From: Thermoanaerobaculia bacterium
GTDB lineage: Bacteria > Acidobacteriota > Thermoanaerobaculia > Gp7-AA8
Direction: 5' to 3'
Assembly (NCBI GenBank): GCA_035536275.1
Contig: DATLOL010000168.1
Coordinates: forward strand, 19,179-83,178
Length of the DNA stretch: 64,000 bases
Positions 17,935 to 30,366 of the stretch are shown here, piece after piece. Within the stretch, counting starts at the first letter, position 1; each line of letters opens with the position of its first letter. The notes beneath the pieces were generated by a model. It was not told the origin of the DNA. It saw only the letters and a list, made by a program, of their open reading frames with translations, and searched no databases. The position numbers and the translations under genes are program-made.

Positions 17935-18765
17935 ATGAAACCCCTTGCTCTCGTCATCGAGAACGACGCCGGTACGCGCCGTTTGCTCGACGTCCTGCTG
18001 TCCCGTGTGGGCATGGACGTCGATCTTGCGCCCAGCGGAACCGACGCGCTGATCCTTTTGCAGAACGTGCAGTACGACGTCGTGCTGATCGATCTCTTCC
18101 TGCCCGGCAAGTCGGGGTTGGAACTGCTGGAGTGGATTGCCGAGGAGCGTCCGGAGCTGCTGGCGCGCGCGGTCGTGGTTTCCTCCGCGCCACCATCGCG
18201 GCTCGATGAGCTGTCGGCGCGCTGGCCGCAGATTCGGACCATCCGCAAGCCGTTCGAGCTCGGTGAAGTGCTGGAGACGACGCAGGCCATCGTCGCCGAC
18301 CGCGTCCCGCGCGTGCAGACGCCGGCCGAGAAGTTCTGCCGGCACTCGATCCGCGCCGGCGCGAAGGCGGGCGTGGTCGTCGCCCGCAGGGACGAGTACA
18401 TCAGTCCCGTGCTGTCGTTCGGCTACACCAGAGAGATGATCGACCAGTATTTTCCGCTGCCGCTGGACGCGCCGTATCCGCTGACGGCCACCATGCGTAA
18501 CGGCAAGCCGGTGTGGATCGCCTCGCTGGTCATGGCCGCGCCCGACTATCCGACGCTGGCCCCGGTGTGGGAGGCGAACGAGAGCCGCGCACTGGCCACG
18601 GTGCCGCTGCTCGAATCCAGTCGCGTCGTCGGCGCCGTGGGCTGGAGTTTCCGCGAGCCGCGGCTCTTCTCCCCGGCCGAGCAGCAGGTTTTCACCGAGA
18701 TCGCTGAGGCCCTTCCGGACTGGCTCAACCTCGACAAGCAATCCACGACGCCCGTCAGCGCGTAA
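17935..18765 (+). CDS. Response regulator, REC + GAF-like output domain
   Basis: REC: LVIE.D....LL..LL.. and DVVLIDLFLPG.SG.ELL, ending ...KPF. The C-terminal half has a GAF-like pattern (..ATVPLL...RVVGAVGWSF.....F...E...). Confidence 0.75.
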   Translation: MKPLALVIENDAGTRRLLDVLLSRVGMDVDLAPSGTDALILLQNVQYDVVLIDLFLPGKSGLELLEWIAEERPELLARAVVVSSAPPSRLDELSARWPQIRTIRKPFELGEVLETTQAIVADRVPRVQTPAEKFCRHSIRAGAKAGVVVARRDEYISPVLSFGYTREMIDQYFPLPLDAPYPLTATMRNGKPVWIASLVMAAPDYPTLAPVWEANESRALATVPLLESSRVVGAVGWSFREPRLFSPAEQQVFTEIAEALPDWLNLDKQSTTPVSA

Positions 18766-18772
18766 CGTCGTC

Positions 18773-20128
18773 GTGACGCAACGCTCGCTCGAAGTCCTCA
18801 ACGAAGTCGCCCGCATCGCCACGCTCGATCTCGAGCTGCGCCCGATGCTTCAGCGAATCACCGATGCGCTGGCCGCGAAATTCGGGTGGGAGTTCGTCGC
18901 ACTGGTGTCCATCGACGACGACCGCTTCGTCTGCGAGGCGCTGACGACGTCGAGCGATACCGCCGTCCACGTCGGCTACAGCCGTGCCCTCGGTAGCGGC
19001 GTCGTGGGCGAGGTCGCGGCCACCGGCCGCTCCGTGCTCATCGACGACGTGACCACGCATCCGAACTACGTCGAGACGATGCCCGGCGCACGCTCCGAGC
19101 TCTGCGTGCCCGTCACCCATCACGGCCGCATCGTGGCCGTCCTCAATCTGGAGAGCACGCGGACCGCCGCGTTCTGTGGACAACTGCCGCTCCTCCGGAC
19201 CGTCGCCGATCAGATCGCCGGTGCGATCGCCAGCGCGCAGATGTACGACGAGCTGCGGCAGCGTGCGCGCCTGATGCAGATGATGAGCGAAGTCTCACGC
19301 ACGGCCCTCGAGGCAACCGATCTCGCGGAGCTGCTCGACCGCATCGTGCGCTACATCGAAGAGCGCTTCCCGCTGCGCCGCGCGGCCATCCTCCTCGGCG
19401 ATTCCGGCGCGGCGCACACGCCGCTTTCGCTCACGATCCCGATCCGTTCCCGTGGGGAGGTCCTCGGCGTGCTGCAGCTCGAGAGCGAAACGCCGGACGT
19501 CTTCACGCCCGCGACCGTGCTCGCGCTCGAGGCCTTCGCCGATCAGGTGGGCGGCGCGATCCGGCTCGCGTCGCTGACCGCGCAGCTCGAGGCGAAGACC
19601 CACGCCCTCGGCGATGCGAACGAGCATCTCGCACGCGCCATCGAGACGCTGCATCTCATCTCGACCCAGGACGGACTCACCGGCGTACCGAATCGTAGGC
19701 ATTTCGATGAAACGCTGTCGCGCGAGTGGCGGCGGGCCGCGCGGTCGCAGCGGCCGCTGTCGATGCTCATGCTCGACATCGACTACTTCAAGCGCTTCAA
19801 CGACACGGCCGGACATCAGGCCGGCGACGATTGCCTGCGCCTCGTCGCGCAGGCGCTTGCCGATTCGCTGCACCGCGCCGGCGACGTCGTCGCGCGCTAC
19901 GGCGGCGAAGAGTTCGCGGTGCTGCTGCCGGAGACCAATGGCGCGGACGCGAGGCAGCTCGCGGAGGGATTGCGCGAGCGCGTTGCGGCGACGGGAAACA
20001 TCACGGTGAGCATCGGCGTCGGGAGCGTCGTGCCACCGCGCGATGCCAGCGGTTGCGAGCTGCTCGTGCGCGCCGCCGATGAGGCGTTGTACGAGGCCAA
20101 GCGCCTCGGCCGCAACCGCGTGGTCTAG
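18773..20128 (+). CDS. Diguanylate cyclase, GAF-GAF-GGDEF
   Basis: RSELCVP......IVAVLNLES (GAF), DGLTG.PNRR.F and RAGDVVARYGGEEF. The GGEEF active site has an RxxD I-site 5 residues upstream. GTG start. Confidence 0.9.
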   Translation: MTQRSLEVLNEVARIATLDLELRPMLQRITDALAAKFGWEFVALVSIDDDRFVCEALTTSSDTAVHVGYSRALGSGVVGEVAATGRSVLIDDVTTHPNYVETMPGARSELCVPVTHHGRIVAVLNLESTRTAAFCGQLPLLRTVADQIAGAIASAQMYDELRQRARLMQMMSEVSRTALEATDLAELLDRIVRYIEERFPLRRAAILLGDSGAAHTPLSLTIPIRSRGEVLGVLQLESETPDVFTPATVLALEAFADQVGGAIRLASLTAQLEAKTHALGDANEHLARAIETLHLISTQDGLTGVPNRRHFDETLSREWRRAARSQRPLSMLMLDIDYFKRFNDTAGHQAGDDCLRLVAQALADSLHRAGDVVARYGGEEFAVLLPETNGADARQLAEGLRERVAATGNITVSIGVGSVVPPRDASGCELLVRAADEALYEAKRLGRNRVV

Positions 20129-20162: not shown

Positions 20163-20855
20163 CTACTTTCTTCGCCGCTGCCGCCCGTCCGACGCTCGCG
20201 CGACGTCCGCCGGCGGCACGATCTCCACGCCCTGCTCGCCGCGCCGTCCGGCACCGCCGCGGCGCGCTTTCTCCAGCGTCATCAGGAATCCGAACGCCGG
20301 ATCCTTGAACTGCAGGTGCCGCAGCATGTGCCAGTGCCGGCGCACGTACGTTTGCAGGAACTGCAACACGTGGCCGAGGGAGATGATGCGGCAGGGAGGA
20401 ACCTGCTCGCCGGGAGGGAAGGACCCGAAGGCGATCAGGCGCACCGAGTACGACGGCGGGATCTCCGCGGCGCCCGTGTGCAGGAGTTGCTGGACGACCC
20501 GGTCCGTGTCGCCCACTTCACCGAAGCGGTTGATCACCGTGCGCAGCACTTCCGGATCGCGGATGCCGCTGTTGATACCGACCCGCCCCTCCTTCACCTC
20601 GCCGATGATCATGTCGATCTGGCCGGGGGGGATGGCCAGCCCGTCGTCGAGGCCGGAGAGGTCGAGGCCTTTCGGCGCCTTGCGCGCCTTCTGCGCCAGC
20701 GGCTCGCCGGACGGAAACCGGAACGCCAGGATGTCGATGTCCGTGATCGTGCGGAACCCGTTACGCCCGGCGCCGGCGATGATCGGATACTCGGCGGAAG
20801 TGAAATAGCCGTTCAGCTGGAGGTACGCCTGAACGAGGGCGACGGCGTGGTCCAT
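20163..20855 (-). CDS. Hypothetical protein with PD-(D/E)xK nuclease-like motif; last gene of the GAF-kinase/REC/CHAT operon
   Basis: Good GC3 bias. The N-terminal alpha-beta pattern carries AEYPI ... TDIDILAF ... MIIGEVKEG (E / D / ExK spacing). It lies 60 nt downstream of the CHAT gene on the same strand. The fold call is inference. Confidence 0.6.
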   Translation of the reverse strand: MDHAVALVQAYLQLNGYFTSAEYPIIAGAGRNGFRTITDIDILAFRFPSGEPLAQKARKAPKGLDLSGLDDGLAIPPGQIDMIIGEVKEGRVGINSGIRDPEVLRTVINRFGEVGDTDRVVQQLLHTGAAEIPPSYSVRLIAFGSFPPGEQVPPCRIISLGHVLQFLQTYVRRHWHMLRHLQFKDPAFGFLMTLEKARRGGAGRRGEQGVEIVPPADVARASDGRQRRRK

Positions 20856-20915
20856 TGCTGCACATGTTAGCGTGCAGTTTGCGGTTTGCGTTCTACGGAA
20901 ATGCGTATGCCGTCG

Positions 20916-22454
20916 TCAAGGCTCGGTCTGGCAGACCATCACCGCTGACGCCCACAATGGCTTCTGCCGCCCACCGGCATGGTCCGCGGCGGCGCGGCGG
21001 CTACGGAGCAGCGCCATCCCCGGCGACAACGACGCGAACAGCTCCTTGTAGAACGTCTGCGCGAACGTGCGCGCGCCGAGGTCGCTCACATTCCAGCGAT
21101 AGCCGATCGTGATCGGAACGTCGCCACGGACGACCCCGTCGAGCGTTCCGTGAAAGTCGCCCTTGCCCACCTGTTGCGCCGTTGCCGCACTGACGCAGCA
21201 ACTGAAGAACGCCAGCCGCAGGTCGCTGCCGCCCACCAGCAGTTTCAGTTGCGCCGCCGTCAGTGACCGTGTGCGCGCGCCCGTGGTGAGCACGATCCCG
21301 CTGCTCTCCGGCGAATGCTTGTCGTACTCTCCGTGCCCGGCGTAATGCACGATGTGATAGCGGCCGCTCTGCAGCAGCTTCCTGCAGTTCTCGTATGTCG
21401 CATCCTTGCCGCGCACGTCGTGGATCAGCGGCTCGATGCCGAGCGCTTTGAGCGCGTTCTCGAGATGCGAGCGCACCTCGGCCAGCTCGCGATCGACGTG
21501 AGGGATCTTCCCGTCCGTGTTCGCCGCGATCAGCAGAACGCGAAGGGGCTGCCTCGTCTGCGCGAGCGTGGCCACGAATTCGTGGAACGGCTCGCCCTTC
21601 TGCGTCGGCCGCAGGCCGTCCGTGGCCAGACGCCGCACGATGATCTGTTCGAAGCACAGGTAGTCGCTCCCGTCGGTGAGCAGCTCGAACGGAACGCCGA
21701 GGGCGGGAGCGTTGCCCGTGAACTGGATGACGGTGGGATCCTGTCTCGACGTGAAGTCGCCTCCGCGAATCAGCACCTCCGCGAGATTCGGCTGCTTCAT
21801 GAGGGTCTGATAGAGCTCGCGGCCGATCGTCCGGGCCTCGTCCGGCCAGACCCGGCTCGTGCCTTTCTCGATTCGCAGGTTCAGGGCGTCGGCTCGCGCG
21901 GCGAATCCCGCCCCATCGAAGGCCGCGTCCAGATAGTAGGAGCCCTTCCGCACCGGTCCCGTGAGCTCGGCCGAGACGAAGCGGTCGTTGCTCATCGAGA
22001 TCGTGACGCCGCAACGCCTGCGCACCCGACGCTCCGCCGTCCGCACGAGTGACGCAAGAATCGCCTTGCGCGCCCGAGCGACGAATGCCTCGCGCGGGAA
22101 TCCGGTCTTGTCGAAAAACGCATCGACCGAATACTCGTCGAACGCCTCCATCACGTGCTTCATGTCCGCGTGCACGCTCACGACGAACAGCGCCGGATCG
22201 ACGGAGGCCTGCTCCGACCGCAGCCGTTGCAAGATTTCGAATCCGCCGCGATTGATGACGGCGCTCGGCGTGACGATGGCGACCAGCGAGATATCGACGG
22301 TGACGAGGTCGTACTCGTGCAGAAGGAGCGCCTTCCACGCCTCGTCCACACTGGACGCCGTCTGAATCTCCAGTCCCGGGATCGCCGCCAGAGAAAGAGA
22401 GAGGATCTCACGCCACTCGGAGGCGTCGTCGATCACCAGCGCGGACAGGCTCAC
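20916..22454 (-). CDS. Response-regulator receiver fused to CHAT (caspase-fold) protease domain
   Basis: REC: ALVIDDASEWREILSLSLA ... LVTVDISL. CHAT: LGVPFELL, LRVLLIAAN, IVHYAGHG (catalytic His position) and LAFFSCCVSA (catalytic Cys position). The GTG start shares GTGA with the upstream stop. Confidence 0.85.
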   Translation of the reverse strand: MSLSALVIDDASEWREILSLSLAAIPGLEIQTASSVDEAWKALLLHEYDLVTVDISLVAIVTPSAVINRGGFEILQRLRSEQASVDPALFVVSVHADMKHVMEAFDEYSVDAFFDKTGFPREAFVARARKAILASLVRTAERRVRRRCGVTISMSNDRFVSAELTGPVRKGSYYLDAAFDGAGFAARADALNLRIEKGTSRVWPDEARTIGRELYQTLMKQPNLAEVLIRGGDFTSRQDPTVIQFTGNAPALGVPFELLTDGSDYLCFEQIIVRRLATDGLRPTQKGEPFHEFVATLAQTRQPLRVLLIAANTDGKIPHVDRELAEVRSHLENALKALGIEPLIHDVRGKDATYENCRKLLQSGRYHIVHYAGHGEYDKHSPESSGIVLTTGARTRSLTAAQLKLLVGGSDLRLAFFSCCVSAATAQQVGKGDFHGTLDGVVRGDVPITIGYRWNVSDLGARTFAQTFYKELFASLSPGMALLRSRRAAADHAGGRQKPLWASAVMVCQTEP

Positions 22455-24061
22455 AAGCCCAGGCGCTCCGCGGACATTGCGGCCGACAGCAGGCCGTGCT
22501 CGCGCTGTACGGCGCCGAGGTGCATGAAGCGAATGAGGTTGAGTCCGTAGAACATCGTCGCGACGTCGAAATCGGGCAGCTCCGAGAAGTTCCGCTTCTG
22601 CGTCACCCGCGCGGCGAGCGATCGGATCACCAGCGATGCATTGAATGCCTTGCGCACGGCGGGGTTCTCACTGGTGAAATCGCTGCGCAGGTTGTCGTTC
22701 TCGTCGAGCTCGCGCGCCGCGGCGACTGCCAGCTCCATCTCCTCCCGCTCCGCCAGCGTCGCCTCGGACGGCCCCAGAAGCGTCACCCGGATGGCCGTAT
22801 CCATCAATGCGAAATCGCGGAGGACGTGCGCCGGTCCGGTGTTGAGAAAATCGATCAGCCAGCAGTTACTGCCCTGATCGACGAGGACGTTGCTCTCATT
22901 CAGGTCGCCATGCGTCAGACACTCGTGCGTCGAATAGACCATCTGTTCATCGCCGACGGCCGGAATCGGATTCCGCAGCTTGCGCACGGGATTCAGCGAA
23001 TTGAAGTGCAGCGTCTTCGTCCCCTGCACATTCCCCAGTTTCTGCAGCGCCTCAGTGAGACCGCCGACGTCACAACCGAGCCGCTCGCGGTATTCGCGGC
23101 CGAGGTTACGTGGGCGAGGTTGACGGCGATTGTCGTACCAGCCTTTACAGGTTTCGAGGAACAGGCGCCGCAGCGCCATGCGGATCTCCGCGTCCGACGA
23201 CTTCCGGTAGAACGTTTTGAAATCGTCGAACTCATTGTTCCCCAGGAGCGAGTAGCACGTTGCTCCCAGTCGCCACGTGTGCGCACTCCGGTAAATGGAC
23301 GTGATCCGGCCGCCCTGCAGGAACGGCTGCACATAGTCGGCGAAGTTCTTGTTTTCCTGTTCGATGTCGTTGACGTCGCCGAACTTGAGGACCACCGGCG
23401 CTCCACCGCCTCCGGTCTTGAGAAACGGCTGCACCTTGGCGACGCCGGCACCGCTCCGGCCAGGGCTCATCGGCGTAATGACGATGCGCTCCGCGTTGTA
23501 GAACGTCCGCGCCAGCAGGTCCTCGAATTCCTCCGAGATGAGGGCGAACTGCTCGCTGTTCTTTTTGATTCTGTCCCGGCCGACTTTCAGGTTATGCAGA
23601 ATCTCCAGGCCGCTGGCGTCGACATTGGCCGCGTGCTGCCAGTCCACCTGCAGGTCGAGATTGATCGGAACGGACCTGGCGAGCAGCTCGCGGGCCGTCT
23701 CTGTGAACGCGCGATGATTGAAGGTCTGCTTCTCGATCAGAGTCGTCGTGGGCCGTCCGGCCAGCGCGGCGACGGTCCGGTCGACGTTCGCATAGCCGGA
23801 AACGACGATGACGGCCGCGGCGTCGATGCGCACGGTCTTGTAGAGGTCCAGCAGGAGATCCAGTCCGTCGCTGTCCCACCCGCGGTGCAGGCTGATGTCG
23901 AAAACGAGGAGGTGATAGCTGTTGCGGTCCAGGCGCTCGCGGAATTCTTCCGGCGTCGCGGTGACGTCGACCTGGGCGCCCAGTTGGGCGAGGCTCAGGC
24001 TCAGTAGTTCGCGCCACTCCGGGTTGTCGTCGAGGACCAGCGCGCGGTAGTTACGGATCAC
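22451..24061 (-). CDS. Response-regulator receiver fused to APH/eukaryotic-like protein-kinase-fold domain
   Basis: REC: ALVLDDNPEWRELLSLSLA ... LLVFDISL. Kinase fold: G-loop GRSGAGV, VVLKFG (Lys), EQEN (alphaC Glu), HGDLNESNVLVD (catalytic loop) and WLIDF (DFG-Asp equivalent). I place the start at GTG 24061, a GTGA overlap. The upstream part of the 659-aa ORF overlaps the preceding gene out of frame. Confidence 0.8.
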   Translation of the reverse strand: MIRNYRALVLDDNPEWRELLSLSLAQLGAQVDVTATPEEFRERLDRNSYHLLVFDISLHRGWDSDGLDLLLDLYKTVRIDAAAVIVVSGYANVDRTVAALAGRPTTTLIEKQTFNHRAFTETARELLARSVPINLDLQVDWQHAANVDASGLEILHNLKVGRDRIKKNSEQFALISEEFEDLLARTFYNAERIVITPMSPGRSGAGVAKVQPFLKTGGGGAPVVLKFGDVNDIEQENKNFADYVQPFLQGGRITSIYRSAHTWRLGATCYSLLGNNEFDDFKTFYRKSSDAEIRMALRRLFLETCKGWYDNRRQPRPRNLGREYRERLGCDVGGLTEALQKLGNVQGTKTLHFNSLNPVRKLRNPIPAVGDEQMVYSTHECLTHGDLNESNVLVDQGSNCWLIDFLNTGPAHVLRDFALMDTAIRVTLLGPSEATLAEREEMELAVAAARELDENDNLRSDFTSENPAVRKAFNASLVIRSLAARVTQKRNFSELPDFDVATMFYGLNLIRFMHLGAVQREHGLLSAAMSAERLGL

Positions 24062-24477
24062 GCCGGCTGGCTCCAGATCGCACGGCGCGCCCGCTGTTTG
24101 CACGACGACTGATTCGCCGCCTCCACGGTGCGCAGGAGAGACGCCGGCGCTCCATAACGTTCGGCGACGCATGTCGCCCCTAACGCAAAGATTCTGCACA
24201 CTGTCGCGACGTCGGCACCGCCGGGCGCGACCACGACCGGTAACGCGCGGCTCACCAGGCGGCGGATCTCGTCGACCGCGGTCTCGGAAACAGATCCGCA
24301 ACCGTAGATGATCACGTCCGGGGCTGGCGTCTCGGCCGCGAGGCCCTGCAGCAGACTGTCCGCGGAAGGAAAACAGCGCGCCGTGTGGCCGGACTGCGCG
24401 AACACGCACCGAGCGGAGTCGCCCCACCATTGAGCGGTGTCAGTGAGCCAGATCAGAAGCGTCGCGCCGGTTGCCAT
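24058..24477 (-). CDS. Small receiver-like (possibly pseudo-receiver) protein
   Basis: 139-aa ORF with an alternating beta/alpha pattern: TLLIWLTD ... DVIIYGCGS ... LPVVVAPGG ... There is no Asp at the expected phospho-acceptor position. It is sandwiched with overlaps between the HK and the REC-kinase genes. Confidence 0.5.
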   Translation of the reverse strand: MATGATLLIWLTDTAQWWGDSARCVFAQSGHTARCFPSADSLLQGLAAETPAPDVIIYGCGSVSETAVDEIRRLVSRALPVVVAPGGADVATVCRIFALGATCVAERYGAPASLLRTVEAANQSSCKQRARRAIWSQPA

Positions 24478-27400
24478 ACGTTACCTCCACTTCTGCGCGC
24501 GGAAGGGTGAGCACGAATCGCGCGCCGCGCTCGCTATCCGCCAATATCAGGTCGCCGCGATTGATGATCGCTTTGCTCCGGGCGCTGAACAGGCCCCAGC
24601 CGGAACTCTCTTTCGACGACACACCGAGCCGGAAAATGTGCGGACGCTCGCGGACGGGCACACCGGGGCCGTCGTCGGCGAACTCGATCTCGACCATGTG
24701 ACCGTTCGATCGCGCGCGCAGCCAGATTCGTCCGGATCCGTTCATCGCCGCGACAGCGTTGTCGGCGAGGTTCTGCAGAATCAGCCGGACGTCGTTGGCC
24801 GCCGCATAAATGCGGGGAGTATCGGGCGTGATTTCGTTGATGACCTCGTAGCCGAGCGGCGCGGCGAGCTTGTCGATGTCGTTGACGATGTCCGCGAGCG
24901 AAAACGGCGCAGGATCGCTGGACGTCACCGCCTTCACATTGTCGCGGAGCTGCTGGCCGAAGGCGATCACGCGCGACACGGACGTCGTGACGGCCTTGAG
25001 GTGCGCTTCCGCCGCGAGGCGGTCCCCTCGGTCGAGGTCCATACGCGCAAAGTCGATGCGCGAATCGACGCCGCCCAGGCCTTCGCCGAGGCGATGGGCG
25101 AGATCGAGTGCGGCATCGCCCATCGACACCATGATCGCGGCGTTCTTGTTCCGCTCCAGCAGCTCCGTCTCGCGCTCGGCGCTGTCCATGCGCTGCAGCG
25201 TCACGGCGAGGAGCCGGGCCAGGCCGCGGATCAGTTTCCGGTCCGGTTCCGCGAAATAGCGCGGACGCGGATGACTCATGCCGATGCTGCCGTAGATCGT
25301 GTTGTTGATGAAGACCGGCGCGACCATGAGGGAGCGCGAGCTCTTGTCGGATAGGGAGATCGGACCATACTCGTAGGGCGGATACTGCAGGTCCTCGATC
25401 ATGACGTCCTCCCAGCGGTCCTTGAACACCTGGGCATAGACGCTGTCGGTAATCGGGATCGACGGGAACGGCTCCGCGCCCTCCCCGGCTTTCGCCACCA
25501 GGCGGAACTCGTTCGCCGCAAAGTCATAGGCGCGTACGACCGCGAAACAGGAACACTGCTCGGCCGCCTCGCGCACGACGATGGAAGACGCCTCGAGCCG
25601 CTGGCTGCCGCTGAGTGCACTGAGCGCCTCGCCCGCGTCGAGCAGGGCGTTGAAGCGCTGGAGCTCGCGGCGGGCCAGATTCTGGCTGCTGGTGATCTCC
25701 ATCGCCAGCACGGCCTCGTCGGCGAACAATTGGAGGAGCTCCTTGTCGTCGTCGTCGAATGCGTTGAAATCCGTGCTTTCGACGTTCAGAACACCGATCA
25801 GTTTGCGCTCGTGTCCCACGAGAGGCACCGCGACTTCGCTGTGAATCCCCGGCTTGCCCTGATACCACTCGTCCTTGTAGGCGTCACCGAGTGCGCGATA
25901 GCCCTCCTTGTCGCGCGCGACCTTGGCCATGATGCCGCGCTTGAGATCTGCGGGGCGGGCCTTGACGAGATCGATCTCCGTAATCGGGGTCGCGAGGCCG
26001 CTCTCTTCACGATTGCAGTAGAGCGTGCGGACCAGTTCCTCGTTGCTGTCGTGGAGATCGAGATCGGAGCGCGTGGCCCGGGTCAGTTCCAGAGCCGACC
26101 GCACGACCGCGCGCAGAACGTCGTTCGGGTCCTTCGCTTCGGCGATCGTCTTCTGCGACAGCTCGAGCAGGGTCCGCATCTGGCGGCGGCGCTCGGTGGC
26201 CTCGTGATAGCGGTCCGAGCTCTGGAACGCCATTGCGGCCGCGGAGGCAATGGCCCTCACGACGCGCTGCGTGCCATCGTCGAAGGTTGTTTCGCCATGT
26301 CCGGCGAGCAGCAACACGCCCCACAGCGACGTTCCGTCGTGCATCGGCGCGATCAGGACGGACGGGAAGTCGGCGAGAAAGTCGCGCTCCTCGTCCGTCG
26401 TGGCCACGCTCTTCCGCGGATTGACGGCGATGGTCATCCGGCTGCGCGCCGACTGGCCGCCGATCAGCCCTCGGTTCCGCTTCAGGCGCGGGAGCTGGTC
26501 GACATGCGGAAAGCCGTGACTGATCTTGGCCTCGAGCTCGTCGCTCTCGTCGTCATACAGAAAGATGATCCCGGCCTCGACCCGCGCGGCATCTTTTGCG
26601 TGAGTGAGCGTCTGTTCGAGGATCTCCTCGCGTTGCAGTTTTCCGACGACGGCGGTCGTGAAGCCGATCAGCCGCTGATGCTCGTGCGCACGGCGCATCG
26701 CGTCTTCGTAGGCCTGCGCTTTCTTGACCGCGATCACGACCTGTCCGGCGAGGGTGTCCACGAACTCCGCGTGCTCGGCATTGAAATGCCGAGGATCGGA
26801 GCTCTCGAAATTGAGGACGCCGATGACGCTTTCGTTGTCGATCAGCGGGTGATCGAGCTCCGACTCCATGCCGTCGCCCGTATCGATGAACAGCGTGCTC
26901 CAGAACGGGTCGTTCCGAACGTTGTTCGCGACCGCGGGTTGGCCCTGGCGGAAGGCCCAGGCACTGATCCCTTTCGGCGAGTCGACGTTCAGCGGGCGAT
27001 TGATCTCGTGCGGCGTTTTGCCGACCGACGTCGCCACGCGCAGCTTGCCGTCGACCAGGAGCAGCAGCGACGCCCGATCCGCTTTCACGATGTCGTTGGC
27101 ACCGCTGACGATCGCGTGTAGGACGTCGCTCAGCGAACGGCTCTGGTTGAGTTGCTGATCGATCAGGCGAATCGCGGCCAGCTTGCGGCTGTGCTGTTCG
27201 CCGCGCTTCGAATACAGGCGCGCGTTGTTGATGGCGATCGCGCTGAACACGCTCAACCCGCGGATCACCCGCGTCTGCGGACCGGCGAACGTCTGCGGCT
27301 GACGGTAATTGAGATAAAGCGCGCCGACGGTCACGCCCGCGATGCGAAGAGGAACGGCGACCGCGGACGCCACCTGCTCTCGCTTCTGGAACAGGCTCTC

Positions 27401-28681
27401 CGTCCTCAATACCGTCCGCCCGAGCTTCGCGGCGATCTCGCTTCCCAGCTTCGATGCGTCGGGCGCGAACACCGGCTCGCGCAGCTCGATCGTCGACGTC
27501 GGAACGTCGCCGATCTCGTACGAGGACGGCAGGGGCACGGTCCGATCGAGCAGCTCGCCGATGACCAGCGGCCGGGGCGGGTCGAAGCGCCGTTCGACGG
27601 AGTCATAGGAGAACAGGACCACCAGATCGGCTTTCGTCGCGGCCTGGATTCGCTCCGCGACGGCGAACTCGATGTCGTCGATCTGCAGATCGGTGGTCAG
27701 GACCTGTCCGACGGACTGCAGGAGGTCGAGGGACTGAAACAGCTCGATGCCGTTCAATGCCGTCGCCACGTGGTTTCCCAGGATCTCGAGAATGCGAACG
27801 TCTTCGTCGTCGTAGATGTCCTGCGCGATGTGCTGCACGAGCAGGAATCCGACGGGCGTCGTGCGCAGACTGAGCGGGACGAACACGTTGGACTGGGCGC
27901 GGCCGCCGAGGGGAAAGCCGAAGTCGTCCAGCGGATCGTTCGGTGAGCGGACGACCTTGTTCGCCTCGAGCGCCGCGCGGCAGGCGTCGTACAGCCGCAA
28001 ACCGATTCGCGTGCCGCGCTCGCCGTCCAGCCGGTGATGGAGATCGACCGTGAGCCCGGTCCGGTCGATCACCCCGAGCATGAACGAGTACTCGGTGTCG
28101 ATCGTGCCCGAGACCTGTTCCAGGAGCTGCTTGAACAGGTCAGGAACGGTGGTCAGGTTCTGATTGATCGCGTTGCCGATCTGAACGACGTTCTTGTAGC
28201 GGATGAACGACCACGCCGTCTGCAGCTCCGCGGCGCTGCGATCGCCGAACCGGACCAGCTTCTCGGTGTCGGGAGGCAGGAACGTTCTCTGTGCGACATA
28301 GTTGAGGTACAGAACAGCGAAGGGGTGGCGGCGCGCGGGCATCATCAGCCGCACGGCCATGAACGAGCGGATCTGCTCCCGCTCCGTGAACGAGCTCTGA
28401 TAACGCCCCGTCGCCGCGACGTTGTTGACGACCAGATAGCGCTCGGCCAGCGTGTCCTGCGTAATGCCTTGCGGGCGCGGCGCGGCAAACTGGAAGGGCT
28501 TCCGGAACTTGCCCGCGGTGTGCGGCGGAGAGAGGAATGCGCCGGTGGCAGGGTTGAAGAGATACAGCACGCAGTTGTCGCAGCCGAACTCCGCGAGCGC
28601 CGTCTCGAGGATGGCGGTGCTCACAGCGACGAGGTCGTCATTGGGGACAGACTCCTCGGGCCCGGGCGCAAGGTTCGTCAC
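24440..28681 (-). CDS. Sensor histidine kinase with about seven tandem GAF domains
   Basis: Seven recurrences of the GAF tail pattern, for example FMAVRLM..FAVLYLNY, VFVPLSL..VGFLLVQH, AVAVPLRIAGVTVGALYLNY, HPLI....VIGVLNFES, LIAPMHDG.SLWGVLLLAG, VAVPLVG...LIGVLNVES and MVAPVFINNTIYGSIGMS. These are followed by DHp (DLAHRLGEG) and HATPase_c (LQNLADNAV, DDGPGV, GWGLF). Start set at GTG 28681, because codons between 28681 and ATG 28828 have poor GC3 and an Arg-run translation. No TM helix is evident, so the protein is probably cytoplasmic. Confidence 0.85.
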   Translation of the reverse strand: MTNLAPGPEESVPNDDLVAVSTAILETALAEFGCDNCVLYLFNPATGAFLSPPHTAGKFRKPFQFAAPRPQGITQDTLAERYLVVNNVAATGRYQSSFTEREQIRSFMAVRLMMPARRHPFAVLYLNYVAQRTFLPPDTEKLVRFGDRSAAELQTAWSFIRYKNVVQIGNAINQNLTTVPDLFKQLLEQVSGTIDTEYSFMLGVIDRTGLTVDLHHRLDGERGTRIGLRLYDACRAALEANKVVRSPNDPLDDFGFPLGGRAQSNVFVPLSLRTTPVGFLLVQHIAQDIYDDEDVRILEILGNHVATALNGIELFQSLDLLQSVGQVLTTDLQIDDIEFAVAERIQAATKADLVVLFSYDSVERRFDPPRPLVIGELLDRTVPLPSSYEIGDVPTSTIELREPVFAPDASKLGSEIAAKLGRTVLRTESLFQKREQVASAVAVPLRIAGVTVGALYLNYRQPQTFAGPQTRVIRGLSVFSAIAINNARLYSKRGEQHSRKLAAIRLIDQQLNQSRSLSDVLHAIVSGANDIVKADRASLLLLVDGKLRVATSVGKTPHEINRPLNVDSPKGISAWAFRQGQPAVANNVRNDPFWSTLFIDTGDGMESELDHPLIDNESVIGVLNFESSDPRHFNAEHAEFVDTLAGQVVIAVKKAQAYEDAMRRAHEHQRLIGFTTAVVGKLQREEILEQTLTHAKDAARVEAGIIFLYDDESDELEAKISHGFPHVDQLPRLKRNRGLIGGQSARSRMTIAVNPRKSVATTDEERDFLADFPSVLIAPMHDGTSLWGVLLLAGHGETTFDDGTQRVVRAIASAAAMAFQSSDRYHEATERRRQMRTLLELSQKTIAEAKDPNDVLRAVVRSALELTRATRSDLDLHDSNEELVRTLYCNREESGLATPITEIDLVKARPADLKRGIMAKVARDKEGYRALGDAYKDEWYQGKPGIHSEVAVPLVGHERKLIGVLNVESTDFNAFDDDDKELLQLFADEAVLAMEITSSQNLARRELQRFNALLDAGEALSALSGSQRLEASSIVVREAAEQCSCFAVVRAYDFAANEFRLVAKAGEGAEPFPSIPITDSVYAQVFKDRWEDVMIEDLQYPPYEYGPISLSDKSSRSLMVAPVFINNTIYGSIGMSHPRPRYFAEPDRKLIRGLARLLAVTLQRMDSAERETELLERNKNAAIMVSMGDAALDLAHRLGEGLGGVDSRIDFARMDLDRGDRLAAEAHLKAVTTSVSRVIAFGQQLRDNVKAVTSSDPAPFSLADIVNDIDKLAAPLGYEVINEITPDTPRIYAAANDVRLILQNLADNAVAAMNGSGRIWLRARSNGHMVEIEFADDGPGVPVRERPHIFRLGVSSKESSGWGLFSARSKAIINRGDLILADSERGARFVLTLPRAEVEVTYGNRRDASDLAH

Positions 28682-28850
28682 GGCGCTTCCACTCTGATGT
28701 GTGTGATTTCTGCCATCATACCGGAACTTGATTCCGGCGATGGAACCGGAAGTCTTCAGCGTTTGCGTTCTGCGGCAACGCCGACGCCGGCGAAGAGCGC
28801 GCCGAGGATGGCGAACCGTCTCATTCACCGTTACACTTCACGCAAATCTC

Positions 28851-29237
28851 ATGACGACCGAAAACGTGCCCGTCCGGAAGCCGTCCTACGACTGCCTCAA
28901 GTGTCCCGCCTACTGCTGCAGCTACGAGCGGATCATCGTCGAAAACAAGGACTTGAAACGCTTGGCGCGGCACTTCGGGATCGACGTCGAGACCGCCCGC
29001 CGCCGCTTCACCAAGATCACCAGCGGCGAGCAGGTGCTGCGTCATCAGAAGGACAAGATCTACGGCTCGATCTGCATGTTTCTCGACACCAGGACCCGCC
29101 GCTGCACGATCTACGACGCGCGCCCCGGCGTCTGTCACGAGTACCCGGACAGACCGCGTTGCGGCTACTACGACTTTCTGAAGTGGGAGCGGACGCATCA
29201 GGAAGACGAAAAGTTCATTCCGCTCAAGCGCGGGTGA
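28851..29237 (+). CDS. YkgJ-family cysteine-cluster protein (CxxCxxCC)
   Basis: CLKCPAYCCS ... C.F......C.IY..RP.VC..YP. Start at MTTENVP. Confidence 0.8.
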   Translation: MTTENVPVRKPSYDCLKCPAYCCSYERIIVENKDLKRLARHFGIDVETARRRFTKITSGEQVLRHQKDKIYGSICMFLDTRTRRCTIYDARPGVCHEYPDRPRCGYYDFLKWERTHQEDEKFIPLKRG

Positions 29238-29394: not shown

Positions 29395-30366
29395 ATGATT
29401 CGACGCTTTCTCGCGCTCGTGCTGCTGGCGGCCACGAGCGTCTCCGCGCAGGTCTCCGAGGAAGTCTCGGTCAGTTACGTGATGGTCCCTTTCACCGTCC
29501 TCGGGCGGAAAGGCGTGCCCGTCACTGATCTCGACAAGAAGGAAGTGACGCTCCGCGTCGACGGCCAGAAAGTCGCGACGGACATGTTCGAGCGCTCGTT
29601 CAACGCGCCCGTGTCGTGGACGATCCTCCTGGACGGTTCGGGATCGATGGGACTGGCGGGCAAAGCCGAGGCGGCCAAGGCGGTCATCAATGCGCTGACG
29701 GCGCGCCGCAAGGCCGGGGACGACTTCGCGCTGTTCCTGTTCACGTCCGAGGGACATGCGAAAGAGCTCGTGCCATTCACGGAGAATCCGGCCGCGATCA
29801 CGCGCGCGGTCGACGTCGTCAAGCCGTGGGGCAAGACCGCGTTCTTCGACGCGCTGGCGGAGATGCCGGAGCACAGCGAGCTGGGACGCAATCCCTCGCG
29901 CGCGATCATCCTGCTCAGCGACGGCATCGACAACGCCTCGCGACTCACCCGCGAGCAGATCGAGAAGCAGCTCGAAGGCGTGGCCATCCCGATTTACGCC
30001 TTCGGTCTGCGCGAGCCCGGAGAGCAGAGGCAGGTGCGCAAGAACGCGCCGATCAACGAAGAGATGGCGAACATCGATCTGCTCGAGGAACTGGCGGTCG
30101 CGACCGGAGGCAACCTCTTTGTCGGCAACCAGCCGGAGCATTTGGCACGGGCAATGGATGGAATCGAACGAACTCTGCGGGCCCAGTACCTCATTGGGTT
30201 TTCCCCTACGGGAAAGGGTGCAGTAAAGTACCGCCGCATTTCGCTGGAGCTCGCGGGGCGCGTGCGTTCCGTTCGGGTTCGGGCCGGCTACCGCGGCACC
30301 GAGCCACCGGTGTTGAGCACCGCGTCCCGTGGGAGCCGGCGCAACGAAAGGAAGAACAGTCGATGA
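29395..30366 (+). CDS. Secreted von Willebrand factor A domain protein
   Basis: Signal peptide, MIDAS DGSGSM, ..T.F.DAL and LLSDG.DN.S. Confidence 0.8.
   Translation: MIRRFLALVLLAATSVSAQVSEEVSVSYVMVPFTVLGRKGVPVTDLDKKEVTLRVDGQKVATDMFERSFNAPVSWTILLDGSGSMGLAGKAEAAKAVINALTARRKAGDDFALFLFTSEGHAKELVPFTENPAAITRAVDVVKPWGKTAFFDALAEMPEHSELGRNPSRAIILLSDGIDNASRLTREQIEKQLEGVAIPIYAFGLREPGEQRQVRKNAPINEEMANIDLLEELAVATGGNLFVGNQPEHLARAMDGIERTLRAQYLIGFSPTGKGAVKYRRISLELAGRVRSVRVRAGYRGTEPPVLSTASRGSRRNERKNSR

Follow-up and report, generated by a model that had tools for sequence, protein, structure and literature searches.

What kind of response is controlled by a soluble sensor histidine kinase (HK) whose gene is coupled to genes for receiver-fused enzymes is the question raised by a minus-strand locus at positions 20163-28681 of a DNA stretch from a Thermoanaerobaculia bacterium (GCA_035536275.1, contig DATLOL010000168.1), the whole 64,000 nt of which we analyzed and refer to as the window. 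Our results show that the horizontally acquired unit at this locus is a four-gene two-component module, in which enzymes serve as outputs in place of a transcription factor. In order on the minus strand, it encodes an HK with seven GAF domains, a 139-aa pseudo-receiver, a receiver (REC) fused to an APH-fold kinase of the TCAD9 family (REC-TCAD9) and a receiver fused to a CHAT protease (REC-CHAT). On the evidence of sequence and gene context, we consider it reasonably probable that the cassette is a phosphotransfer-gated conflict module with enzymatic outputs that resembles Detocs, a system in which HK to REC-effector phosphotransfer serves anti-phage immunity (Rousset et al. 2023, bioRxiv 10.1101/2023.01.24.525353).

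The junctions between the four genes are close. The stop codon (24440-24442) of the gene for the 1413-aa HK (24440..28681, minus strand) lies within a 38-nt overlap with the open reading frame (ORF) for the 139-aa protein (24058..24477, minus strand), the ATG of which, at 24477, is preceded on its 5' side by a GGAGG ribosome-binding site. GTGA overlaps then join the stop of the 139-aa ORF to the start of the gene for the 536-aa REC-TCAD9 response regulator (24058-24061; gene at 22451..24061, minus strand) and the stop of the latter to the start of the gene for the 512-aa REC-CHAT response regulator (22451-22454; gene at 20916..22454, minus strand). The starts at 28681 (HK) and 24061 (REC-TCAD9) fit the codon-position GC content, with GC3 being 0.83-0.85 in the genes and falling to 0.57-0.61 in the extensions upstream of these starts. 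A gap of 60 nt (20856-20915) lies between the REC-CHAT gene and a 230-aa ORF. An initial annotation of this DNA had described five ORFs with coupled junctions; five minus-strand ORFs are indeed present and three of their junctions are coupled, but the fifth ORF, after the gap, lies outside the unit. What that annotation had read directly from the letters, i.e. coordinates, overlaps, motifs, seven GAF modules and the lack of a transmembrane (TM) segment, was reproduced in full on re-analysis. Pfam searches detected no helix-turn-helix domain in the four cassette proteins, as had been stated for the operon; with the receivers being fused to a kinase and a protease, this agrees with the proposal that the output is enzymatic rather than transcriptional.

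The HK consists of seven tandem GAF domains (aa 16-1161, ~nt 25199-28636), followed by the H-box of a DHp domain and an HATPase_c core. Pfam alone (GAF, GAF_2 and GAF_3 profiles) scores six GAF domains plus HATPase_c, the latter at 50.7 bits versus a cut-off of 26.4, whereas iterated domain searching with jackhmmer finds exactly seven, the number first proposed. The seven-GAF layout is also present in six other loci and, by the same method, is kept across phyla. The characteristic motifs are DLAHRLGEG (at 1193), LQNLADNAV (1302), DDGPGV (1336) and GWGLF (1361). The H-box histidine, His1196 (codon 25094-25096), lies within the first of these, does not vary among 12 HKs and falls, in the alignment, at the phospho-His region of FixL/YF1 (4gcz); the C-terminal 230 residues as a whole align with FixL/YF1, EnvZ and PrrB-type kinases. 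The N (LQNLADNA), G1 (DDGPG) and G2 (GWGL) boxes are conserved, in keeping with the ATPase having been described as intact, and a search for TM-like segments in the HK confirmed that none is present. The protein thus has both the DHp phospho-His and the ATP-binding boxes of a two-component sensor, and is predicted to be soluble and catalytically competent, with its H-box and ATPase core intact.

Of the two enzymes, REC-TCAD9 has a receiver at aa 1-125 (acceptor D55, with K111) and an APH-fold kinase at aa ~170-536, the latter with the motifs GRSGAGV (201), VVLKFG (223), HGDLNESNVLVD (384) and WLIDF (401). It matches the Pfam profile TCAD9 (PF19974) at 135 bits, with the cut-off being 40, and the Response_reg and APH profiles as well; TCAD9 is a family that derives from the conflict systems of Kaur et al. 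2020 (PMC7159879). Residues D55, K111, K226, E236, H384-G-D386, N391 and D404-F are invariant in 13 homologs. The AlphaFold2 (AF2) model, a confident one (pLDDT 89, pTM 0.88), retrieves receiver domains with Foldseek at TMt 0.84-0.87; among kinase folds it is closest to aminoglycoside 3'-phosphotransferases, with APH(3')-Ia at the top (E 1e-6). Profile, fold and a complete set of catalytic motifs therefore agree in identifying a TCAD9/APH-like kinase. The kinase family is sizeable, because the kinase domain, searched exhaustively, matches 1,776 representative clusters at E <= 1e-3 (151 at E <= 1e-30), and because 73 of the 84 full-length proteins obtained from the 150 best matches bear a receiver; three of the 84 are fused to GAF and HATPase_c domains. 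Word-indexed searching found 17-18 homologs for REC-TCAD9 and REC-CHAT, the closest non-identical one being at 54% identity. In the literature searched, we found no description of the function of the receiver-TCAD9 family.

REC-CHAT, for which the NCBI product name is 'CHAT domain-containing protein', combines a receiver with acceptor D54 and a caspase-fold CHAT protease (PF12770; 84.6 bits versus a cut-off of 24). Its catalytic motifs are HYAGHG at 370 (H370/H374) and FFSCCVS at 416 (C419/C420), and 8 REC-CHAT orthologs all keep the AGH histidine and both cysteines; the profile match and this conserved His/Cys dyad identify a CHAT peptidase. In alignments, the receiver retains the Asp, Ser/Thr and Lys residues. 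The Response_reg scores of the two receiver-fused proteins are nearly identical (36.5 and 36.7 bits versus a cut-off of 30.2), and both align with D12/D13, D57, T87 and K109 of CheY, with the two acceptor pockets being complete.

The remaining protein of the cassette is of a different kind. The initial annotation had counted three receiver proteins as phosphotransfer partners; only two, REC-TCAD9 and REC-CHAT, have an acceptor Asp, the small ORF being without one. The 139-aa protein has no match in Pfam or PADLOC, but a profile of six orthologs aligns with that of the partner REC domains at an hhalign probability of 96.5% (E 8e-10), revealing a REC-fold homolog. The column corresponding to D57 of CheY is occupied by G, A or S in 19/19 dereplicated orthologs, whereas D12 is kept, and T87 and K109 are poorly kept. 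Because the acceptor Asp column is always G, A or S, the protein is predicted to be a conserved receiver paralog that is incapable of accepting phosphate.

The limits of the unit bear directly on the proposal of a five-gene operon, in which the 230-aa ORF (20163..20855, minus strand) would encode a PD-(D/E)xK nuclease that is likewise under the control of the HK. That ORF is on the same strand as the cassette and 60 nt downstream of it, and its product has the motifs DIDILA (39) and GEVKEG (85), with D39, D41, E86 and K88 being invariant, and a basic C-terminal tail. It has no Pfam, PADLOC or PDB sequence match. The structure prediction that had been suggested for it gave an AF2 model of moderate quality (pLDDT 66.6), the order of secondary-structure elements in which is compatible with a restriction-endonuclease-like core; the Foldseek matches are headed by the restriction endonucleases EcoO109I and FokI (E 0.4-0.7), with XisH lower (E 2.7), none being significant. 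On the basis of the invariant residues, the protein may be a PD-(D/E)xK enzyme, although the case is weak. Its distribution, however, is not that of a part of the system: tblastn detected no match to it at any locus carrying a homologous operon, and it is found in the same place without the cassette in three related genomes (L012, L013 and L032). In the word-indexed search that gave 17-18 homologs for the two cassette enzymes, it has 1,859, of which the best 120 listed are at 79-100% identity (the best listed being at 79-96%) and are from Thermoanaerobaculia or Acidobacteriota where the source is named. Moreover, the protein is without a receiver domain, and one copy of a direct repeat separates its gene from that for REC-CHAT. 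We thus rejected the five-gene operon and consider control of this ORF by the HK to be extremely improbable; the 230-aa gene looks like a lineage-specific core gene, i.e. an ancestral neighbor of the insertion site that is conserved in the lineage and lies outside the system.

The cassette-free genomes define the insertion itself. On the long contigs L012 and L013, from related genomes, the 230-aa gene is divergent from, and ~90 nt from, a CxxCxxCC-vWA-OmpA block, and no HK, small ORF, kinase or CHAT gene is present on either contig. L013 also repeats the other flank of the window (GAF-GGDEF, REC-GAF, ABC, MacB, TetR and M28 genes), and the window minus 20895-28760 aligns colinearly with its empty site. 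The segment so defined (7,866 bp) is bounded by an 11-bp direct repeat, AGAACGCAAAC, with the left copy at 28761..28771 (minus strand) marking the upstream and the right copy at 20884..20894 (minus strand) the downstream boundary of the cassette; exactly two copies, both exact, are present in the window and one is present at the empty L013 site. The repeat backs insertion but is no proof alone, because an exact 11-mer is common to ~1.6% of pairs of 120-nt windows taken at random. In L032, the third relative, an alpha/beta-hydrolase gene occupies the slot of the cassette, and there too the 230-aa gene is beside the CxxCxxCC-vWA-OmpA block. From the empty sites, the colinearity and the repeat, we therefore conclude that a four-gene 7.9-kb cassette has entered a variable intergenic slot, the three states of which (empty, hydrolase or cassette) suggest a local integration hotspot between the 230-aa and CxxCxxCC genes. 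No integrase or transposase is present within the insert; a homologous cassette (L001) adjoins a phage-type integrase, which, with the absence of the cassette from the syntenic L012 and L013 contigs and the direct repeat, is a sign of an accessory, mobile element.

The genes flanking the insert belong to the ancestral context. Upstream, the divergent CxxCxxCC gene had been given as an ORF starting at 28728 (28728-29237, plus strand), a start that would overlap the repeat and the cassette boundary; we rejected it as a first-start artefact, since homology with L012 and L013 indicates an ATG at 28851 and a product of ~128 aa. The vWA gene at 29395-30366 is likewise an ancestral neighbor that is also present at the empty sites. 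We considered whether this gene, together with the TCAD9 kinase, might indicate a vWA-MoxR-VMAP ternary system, and rejected that possibility given that the vWA block is ancestral and that MoxR and VMAP are absent. On the other side, two plus-strand genes (17935-20128) point toward the 230-aa gene, one encoding a REC-GAF protein of 276 aa and the other a GAF-GAF-GGDEF diguanylate cyclase of 451 aa; because they are also found in the cassette-free L013, the two genes are ancestral and outside the module.

Comparison of related loci reveals which parts of the cassette travel together. Loci from exact-protein look-ups, a GTDB genome scan (18 loci, obtained with 8 closely related sequences) and a metagenome scan (47 loci) were mapped with hidden Markov models of the window family and dereplicated at 90% kinase identity, giving 55 groups, 40 of which are REC-TCAD9 groups. 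An HK catalytic core is directly 5' of REC-TCAD9 in every group for which 300 nt or more of upstream sequence is available (39/39); on contigs of sufficient length, the HK usually has 5-8 GAF domains. HKs and receiver-fused enzymes are thus linked across phyla. The conservation of gene neighborhood on which the initial annotation had made its reading depend is therefore present, and its proposal that one HK may control a protease, a kinase and possibly a nuclease is supported with respect to the HK as partner of the receiver-fused enzymes, though not with respect to the nuclease. The hosts are Chloroflexota (Ktedonobacteraceae, including the cultured Ktedonospora formicarum, Chloroflexales, Caldilineaceae and Anaerolineae), Thermoanaerobaculia (Acidobacteriota) and one Nitrospirota metagenome-assembled genome (MAG).

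The position downstream of REC-TCAD9 is variable. Among the 40 groups, it is filled by REC-CHAT in 15, by a second REC-TCAD9 in 6 and by REC-PNP_UDP_1 in 1, with no receiver-fused gene downstream in 15. The REC-PNP_UDP_1 gene (L040:2692-4053, metagenome contig Ga0065712_10067876) occupies the CHAT slot after an HK, a pseudo-receiver and REC-TCAD9, and its product matches the Detocs-type PADLOC profile PDC-M60C at 1.3e-24 and a CBASS PN effector at 1.5e-19. The pseudo-receiver, present in 19 groups, follows the same slot: it is found in 11/14 CHAT loci, 0/6 double-kinase loci and 5/15 loci without a downstream receiver-fused gene, the remaining three groups being L040 and two truncated loci. 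A first view of 15 loci had suggested its restriction to CHAT loci, which the 40 dereplicated loci reduced to an enrichment (11/14 versus 5/21 in the others, Fisher p = 0.002).

Genes neighboring these loci include HTH-NB-ARC/NACHT-WD40 STAND (9 groups), AAA_16 (6 groups), nSTAND1 (4 groups), Band_7 (4 groups) and TIR (3 groups) genes, together with a SIR2 gene the product of which matches Thoeris ThsA at 5.7e-35, and CHAT-less loci usually have STAND NTPases, TIR, SIR2 or Band_7 genes close by. We favor a conflict-type role because the effector slot swaps with PNP and because the neighbors include STAND, TIR and SIR2 genes, observations that also support the likeness to abortive-infection logic proposed at the outset. 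By analogy with Detocs, the most likely role of the cassette would be a response of the conflict or abortive-infection type.

Several arrangements vary the theme. In eight loci, mostly of Ktedonobacteraceae type (L015, L017, L020, L021, L042, L051, L057 and L070), a GAF-HK gene is followed by one or two REC-TCAD9 genes; next come an opposite-strand gene for a ~230-245-aa protein without a Pfam or PADLOC match and a gene for a ~1,000-1,200-aa HTH-NB-ARC/NACHT-WD40 STAND protein. A hybrid HATPase_c-REC-TCAD9 gene directly follows REC-CHAT in L016 (13357-15210), and also in L045 and L073. In L019 (12292-14811), TCAD9 forms one protein with a STAND-type AAA_22 NTPase, and an AAA_35-TIR protein is encoded next. 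In Cloacimonadota (L022, L024-L027 and L074-L077), the fusion partner of TCAD9 is instead an N-terminal STAS domain, in a 784-aa protein with no adjoining HK, which suggests that the same kinase is controlled there by partner switching and not by a phosphorelay. Distant REC-CHAT proteins (28% identity) are encoded directly after multi-GAF HKs, without TCAD9, in Kofleriaceae and on one metagenome contig. These loci, L080 (a Kofleriaceae MAG) and the P0293 contig (JGI 3300043331), have very large multi-GAF HKs; in one of them the HK is of 2,089 aa with its own receiver, preceded by an S1-REC-GAF-HK gene and followed by one for an astacin peptidase.

If the cassette is a conflict module of this kind, its GAF array would read an intracellular cue, possibly a ligand of nucleotide type or one arising from infection or stress, and so induce autophosphorylation at His1196. 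From the operon coupling and the constant adjacency of HK and REC-TCAD9, we infer that the phosphoryl group would then pass in parallel to Asp55 of REC-TCAD9 and Asp54 of REC-CHAT, with receiver phosphorylation relieving receiver-mediated inhibition such that both enzymes become active. The pseudo-receiver, the synthesis of which is coupled to that of the HK, probably binds either the HK or a partner receiver, and its occupancy would set the firing threshold. DtcB of Detocs, in contrast, is thought to absorb phosphate; the pseudo-receiver would modulate by binding, without draining phosphate. The TCAD9 kinase, which may act on a protein or on a small molecule, is likely the core transducer or an effector, with CHAT being in an exchangeable effector slot that elsewhere holds PNP or a second TCAD9. 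Because the kinase is the invariant partner and many CHAT-less loci have effectors without receivers, it would also be the most plausible link to the STAND, TIR and SIR2 proteins.

Some of these properties might be read as those of an addiction (toxin-antitoxin-like) cassette that ensures its own maintenance, with the kinase and protease as toxins and the pseudo-receiver as antidote, or of an antibiotic-type small-molecule kinase that would detoxify a compound under HK control. The closest solved folds are indeed aminoglycoside and amicoumacin kinases, the cassette looks mobile, and the small non-phosphorylatable protein is tightly coupled to the HK. A seven-GAF sensor of 1,400 aa that accompanies the kinase in every readable locus is, however, hard to square with a simple toxin-antitoxin pair, and the supposed antidote is absent from about half of the loci. 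In addition, TCAD9 recurs in vWA-MoxR systems and in CARF/SAVED fusions, i.e. in conflict systems, not resistance islands (PMC7159879, PMC10910872). We consider either form of this explanation very unlikely.

A more serious alternative to a conflict module is ordinary, non-immune signaling, in which the multi-GAF HK would sense a metabolite or second messenger and thereby direct proteolysis and phosphorylation in development, stress or the cell cycle. Physiological sensing by GAF-HKs is common, enzymes fused to receivers form an established class of physiological output, and the flanks of the window bear REC-GAF and GAF-GGDEF genes. Many of the carriers are filamentous or developmental (Ktedonobacteria, Chloroflexia and Kofleriaceae), such that a developmental proteolytic or kinase switch would also fit these data. 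Other observations also weigh against the conflict module: PADLOC gave no system-level match for the window proteins, no recognized defense gene adjoins the cassette in the window, and a scan of viral contigs found no homologs on them. The direct repeat, taken by itself, is only moderately improbable. Phosphotransfer, activation, toxicity and phage defense are all inferred from sequence and gene context. Against non-immune signaling, the flanking signaling genes are ancestral and are present in cassette-free genomes, whereas the cassette is sporadic and in a variable slot; moreover, the exchange of its effector for a Detocs-type PNP and its STAND, TIR, ThsA-like SIR2 and Band_7 neighbors are typical of conflict systems. 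On balance, a purely physiological role appears rather unlikely, and we prefer the conflict module.

A bolder proposal, which we regard as tentative, is that GAF-HK plus REC-TCAD9 is the core of an undescribed and widespread phosphorelay immune family, in which a His-Asp relay would switch on the kinase, which would be the obligate transducer to exchangeable death effectors and the pseudo-receiver a safety catch. If so, a family of Chloroflexota and Acidobacteriota, phyla barely sampled in defense-system screens, would employ CHAT, PNP, SIR2, TIR and NLR-like STAND NTPases as death effectors, and would join two-component signaling to NLR-, caspase- and sirtuin-type immunity, beyond what is seen in Detocs or in the ternary systems of Aravind and colleagues. 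In the literature searched, Detocs is the one two-component relay shown experimentally to be a direct immune effector switch. The family would extend its principle to a seven-GAF sensor, with a hint of small-molecule or nucleotide sensing, and would add a caspase-like protease and an APH-fold TCAD9 kinase as effectors, with a pseudo-receiver replacing the phosphate sink. It physically links HKs to NLR-like STAND genes and gives a tractable handle on the TCAD9 kinases, which recur in several predicted conflict systems and also among CARF/SAVED proteins linked to CRISPR. Its members form a coherent set that crosses phyla and is amenable to experiment.

With respect to known systems, CheB, PleD/WspR and RpfG are canonical enzymatic response regulators, and the cassette has in common with systems of that type an H-box HK that passes phosphate to a receiver Asp and thereby controls the enzyme fused to that receiver. 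It differs from them in its outputs (an APH-fold kinase and a caspase-like protease), in its sporadic, mobile nature, in its conflict-type context and in having a dedicated pseudo-receiver. With Craspase/Csx29 (type III-E) and SAVED-CHAT (PDB 8tl0), it shares a caspase-fold CHAT effector that would be inactive until a sensor fires, and REC-CHAT has a weak sequence match to the CHAT domain protein of 8tl0. Those systems are activated by binding of target RNA or of a cyclic oligonucleotide, whereas activation here would be by Asp phosphorylation of the fused receiver, and, unlike them, the cassette is without CRISPR, CARF or SAVED parts.

The ternary conflict systems of Kaur, Burroughs, Iyer and Aravind (PMC7159879; PMC8195603) have more parts in common with the cassette, including the APH-like TCAD9 kinase, CHAT/caspase peptidases and receivers, and are also similar in their STAND, TIR and SIR2 neighbors and in their bias to multicellular or filamentous bacteria. 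The receivers described in those papers are, however, independent of histidine kinases, with no HK being among the vWA-associated effectors, whereas an HK is the invariant partner in the present family; Pfam searches detected no MoxR, VMAP or vWA core in the cassette. Ambrosia, the other two-component defense system that we found, is proposed to act via transcription. The combination of GAF-HK, REC-TCAD9 and REC-CHAT was not found to be described in the searchable literature, the coverage of which did not extend to Burroughs & Aravind 2020 (J Bacteriol).

The closest comparison is with Detocs, which comprises the sensor HK DtcA, the stand-alone receiver DtcB, acting as a buffer, and the receiver-PNP protein DtcC; both the His of the HK and the Asp of DtcC are needed for defense, and different effectors can fill its modular slot, with PNP being the DtcC effector in about 80% of systems (bioRxiv 10.1101/2023.01.24.525353). 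The present cassette likewise has a sensor HK that is cytoplasmic, a small protein of receiver type that stands alone, a receiver-fused enzyme and a modular effector slot, and its relative L040 has the Detocs effector type, REC-PNP, itself. The parts are nonetheless different. The Detocs proteins of B. toyonensis pBtP18, used as a control, match PDC-M60A, PDC-M60B and PDC-M60C at 1e-118 (DtcA 4.6e-118), 1e-47 and 1e-119, respectively, whereas the window HK has no PADLOC match at E <= 0.01, PDC-M60A included, and no similarity to DtcA of pBtP18 by BLASTP (E 0.96). The 139-aa protein does not match PDC-M60B, and hhalign gives a probability of 0.3% for its alignment with a genuine DtcB. The DtcC-type architecture, i.e. 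a receiver with intact Asp, Ser/Thr and Lys fused to an enzyme, is present in both REC-CHAT and REC-TCAD9; the only PADLOC matches of the window receivers are weak ones to PDC-M60B and PDC-M60C, the latter being limited to REC (8.5e-5). Because the cassette lacks both a DtcA and a DtcB by these comparisons, it is not a Detocs member. Its sensor has seven GAF domains where the N terminus of DtcA has TPRs, its small protein is without the acceptor Asp on which DtcB depends, it adds an invariant REC-TCAD9 kinase, its effector is a CHAT protease, and its hosts are Acidobacteriota and Chloroflexota. The view that the locus corresponds to no named system is thus correct with respect to PADLOC and to the gene combination, which is undescribed in the literature searched, but was overstated in that the logic matches that of Detocs: as judged from its proteins, the cassette is a Detocs-like, probably defensive two-component architecture built from other parts.

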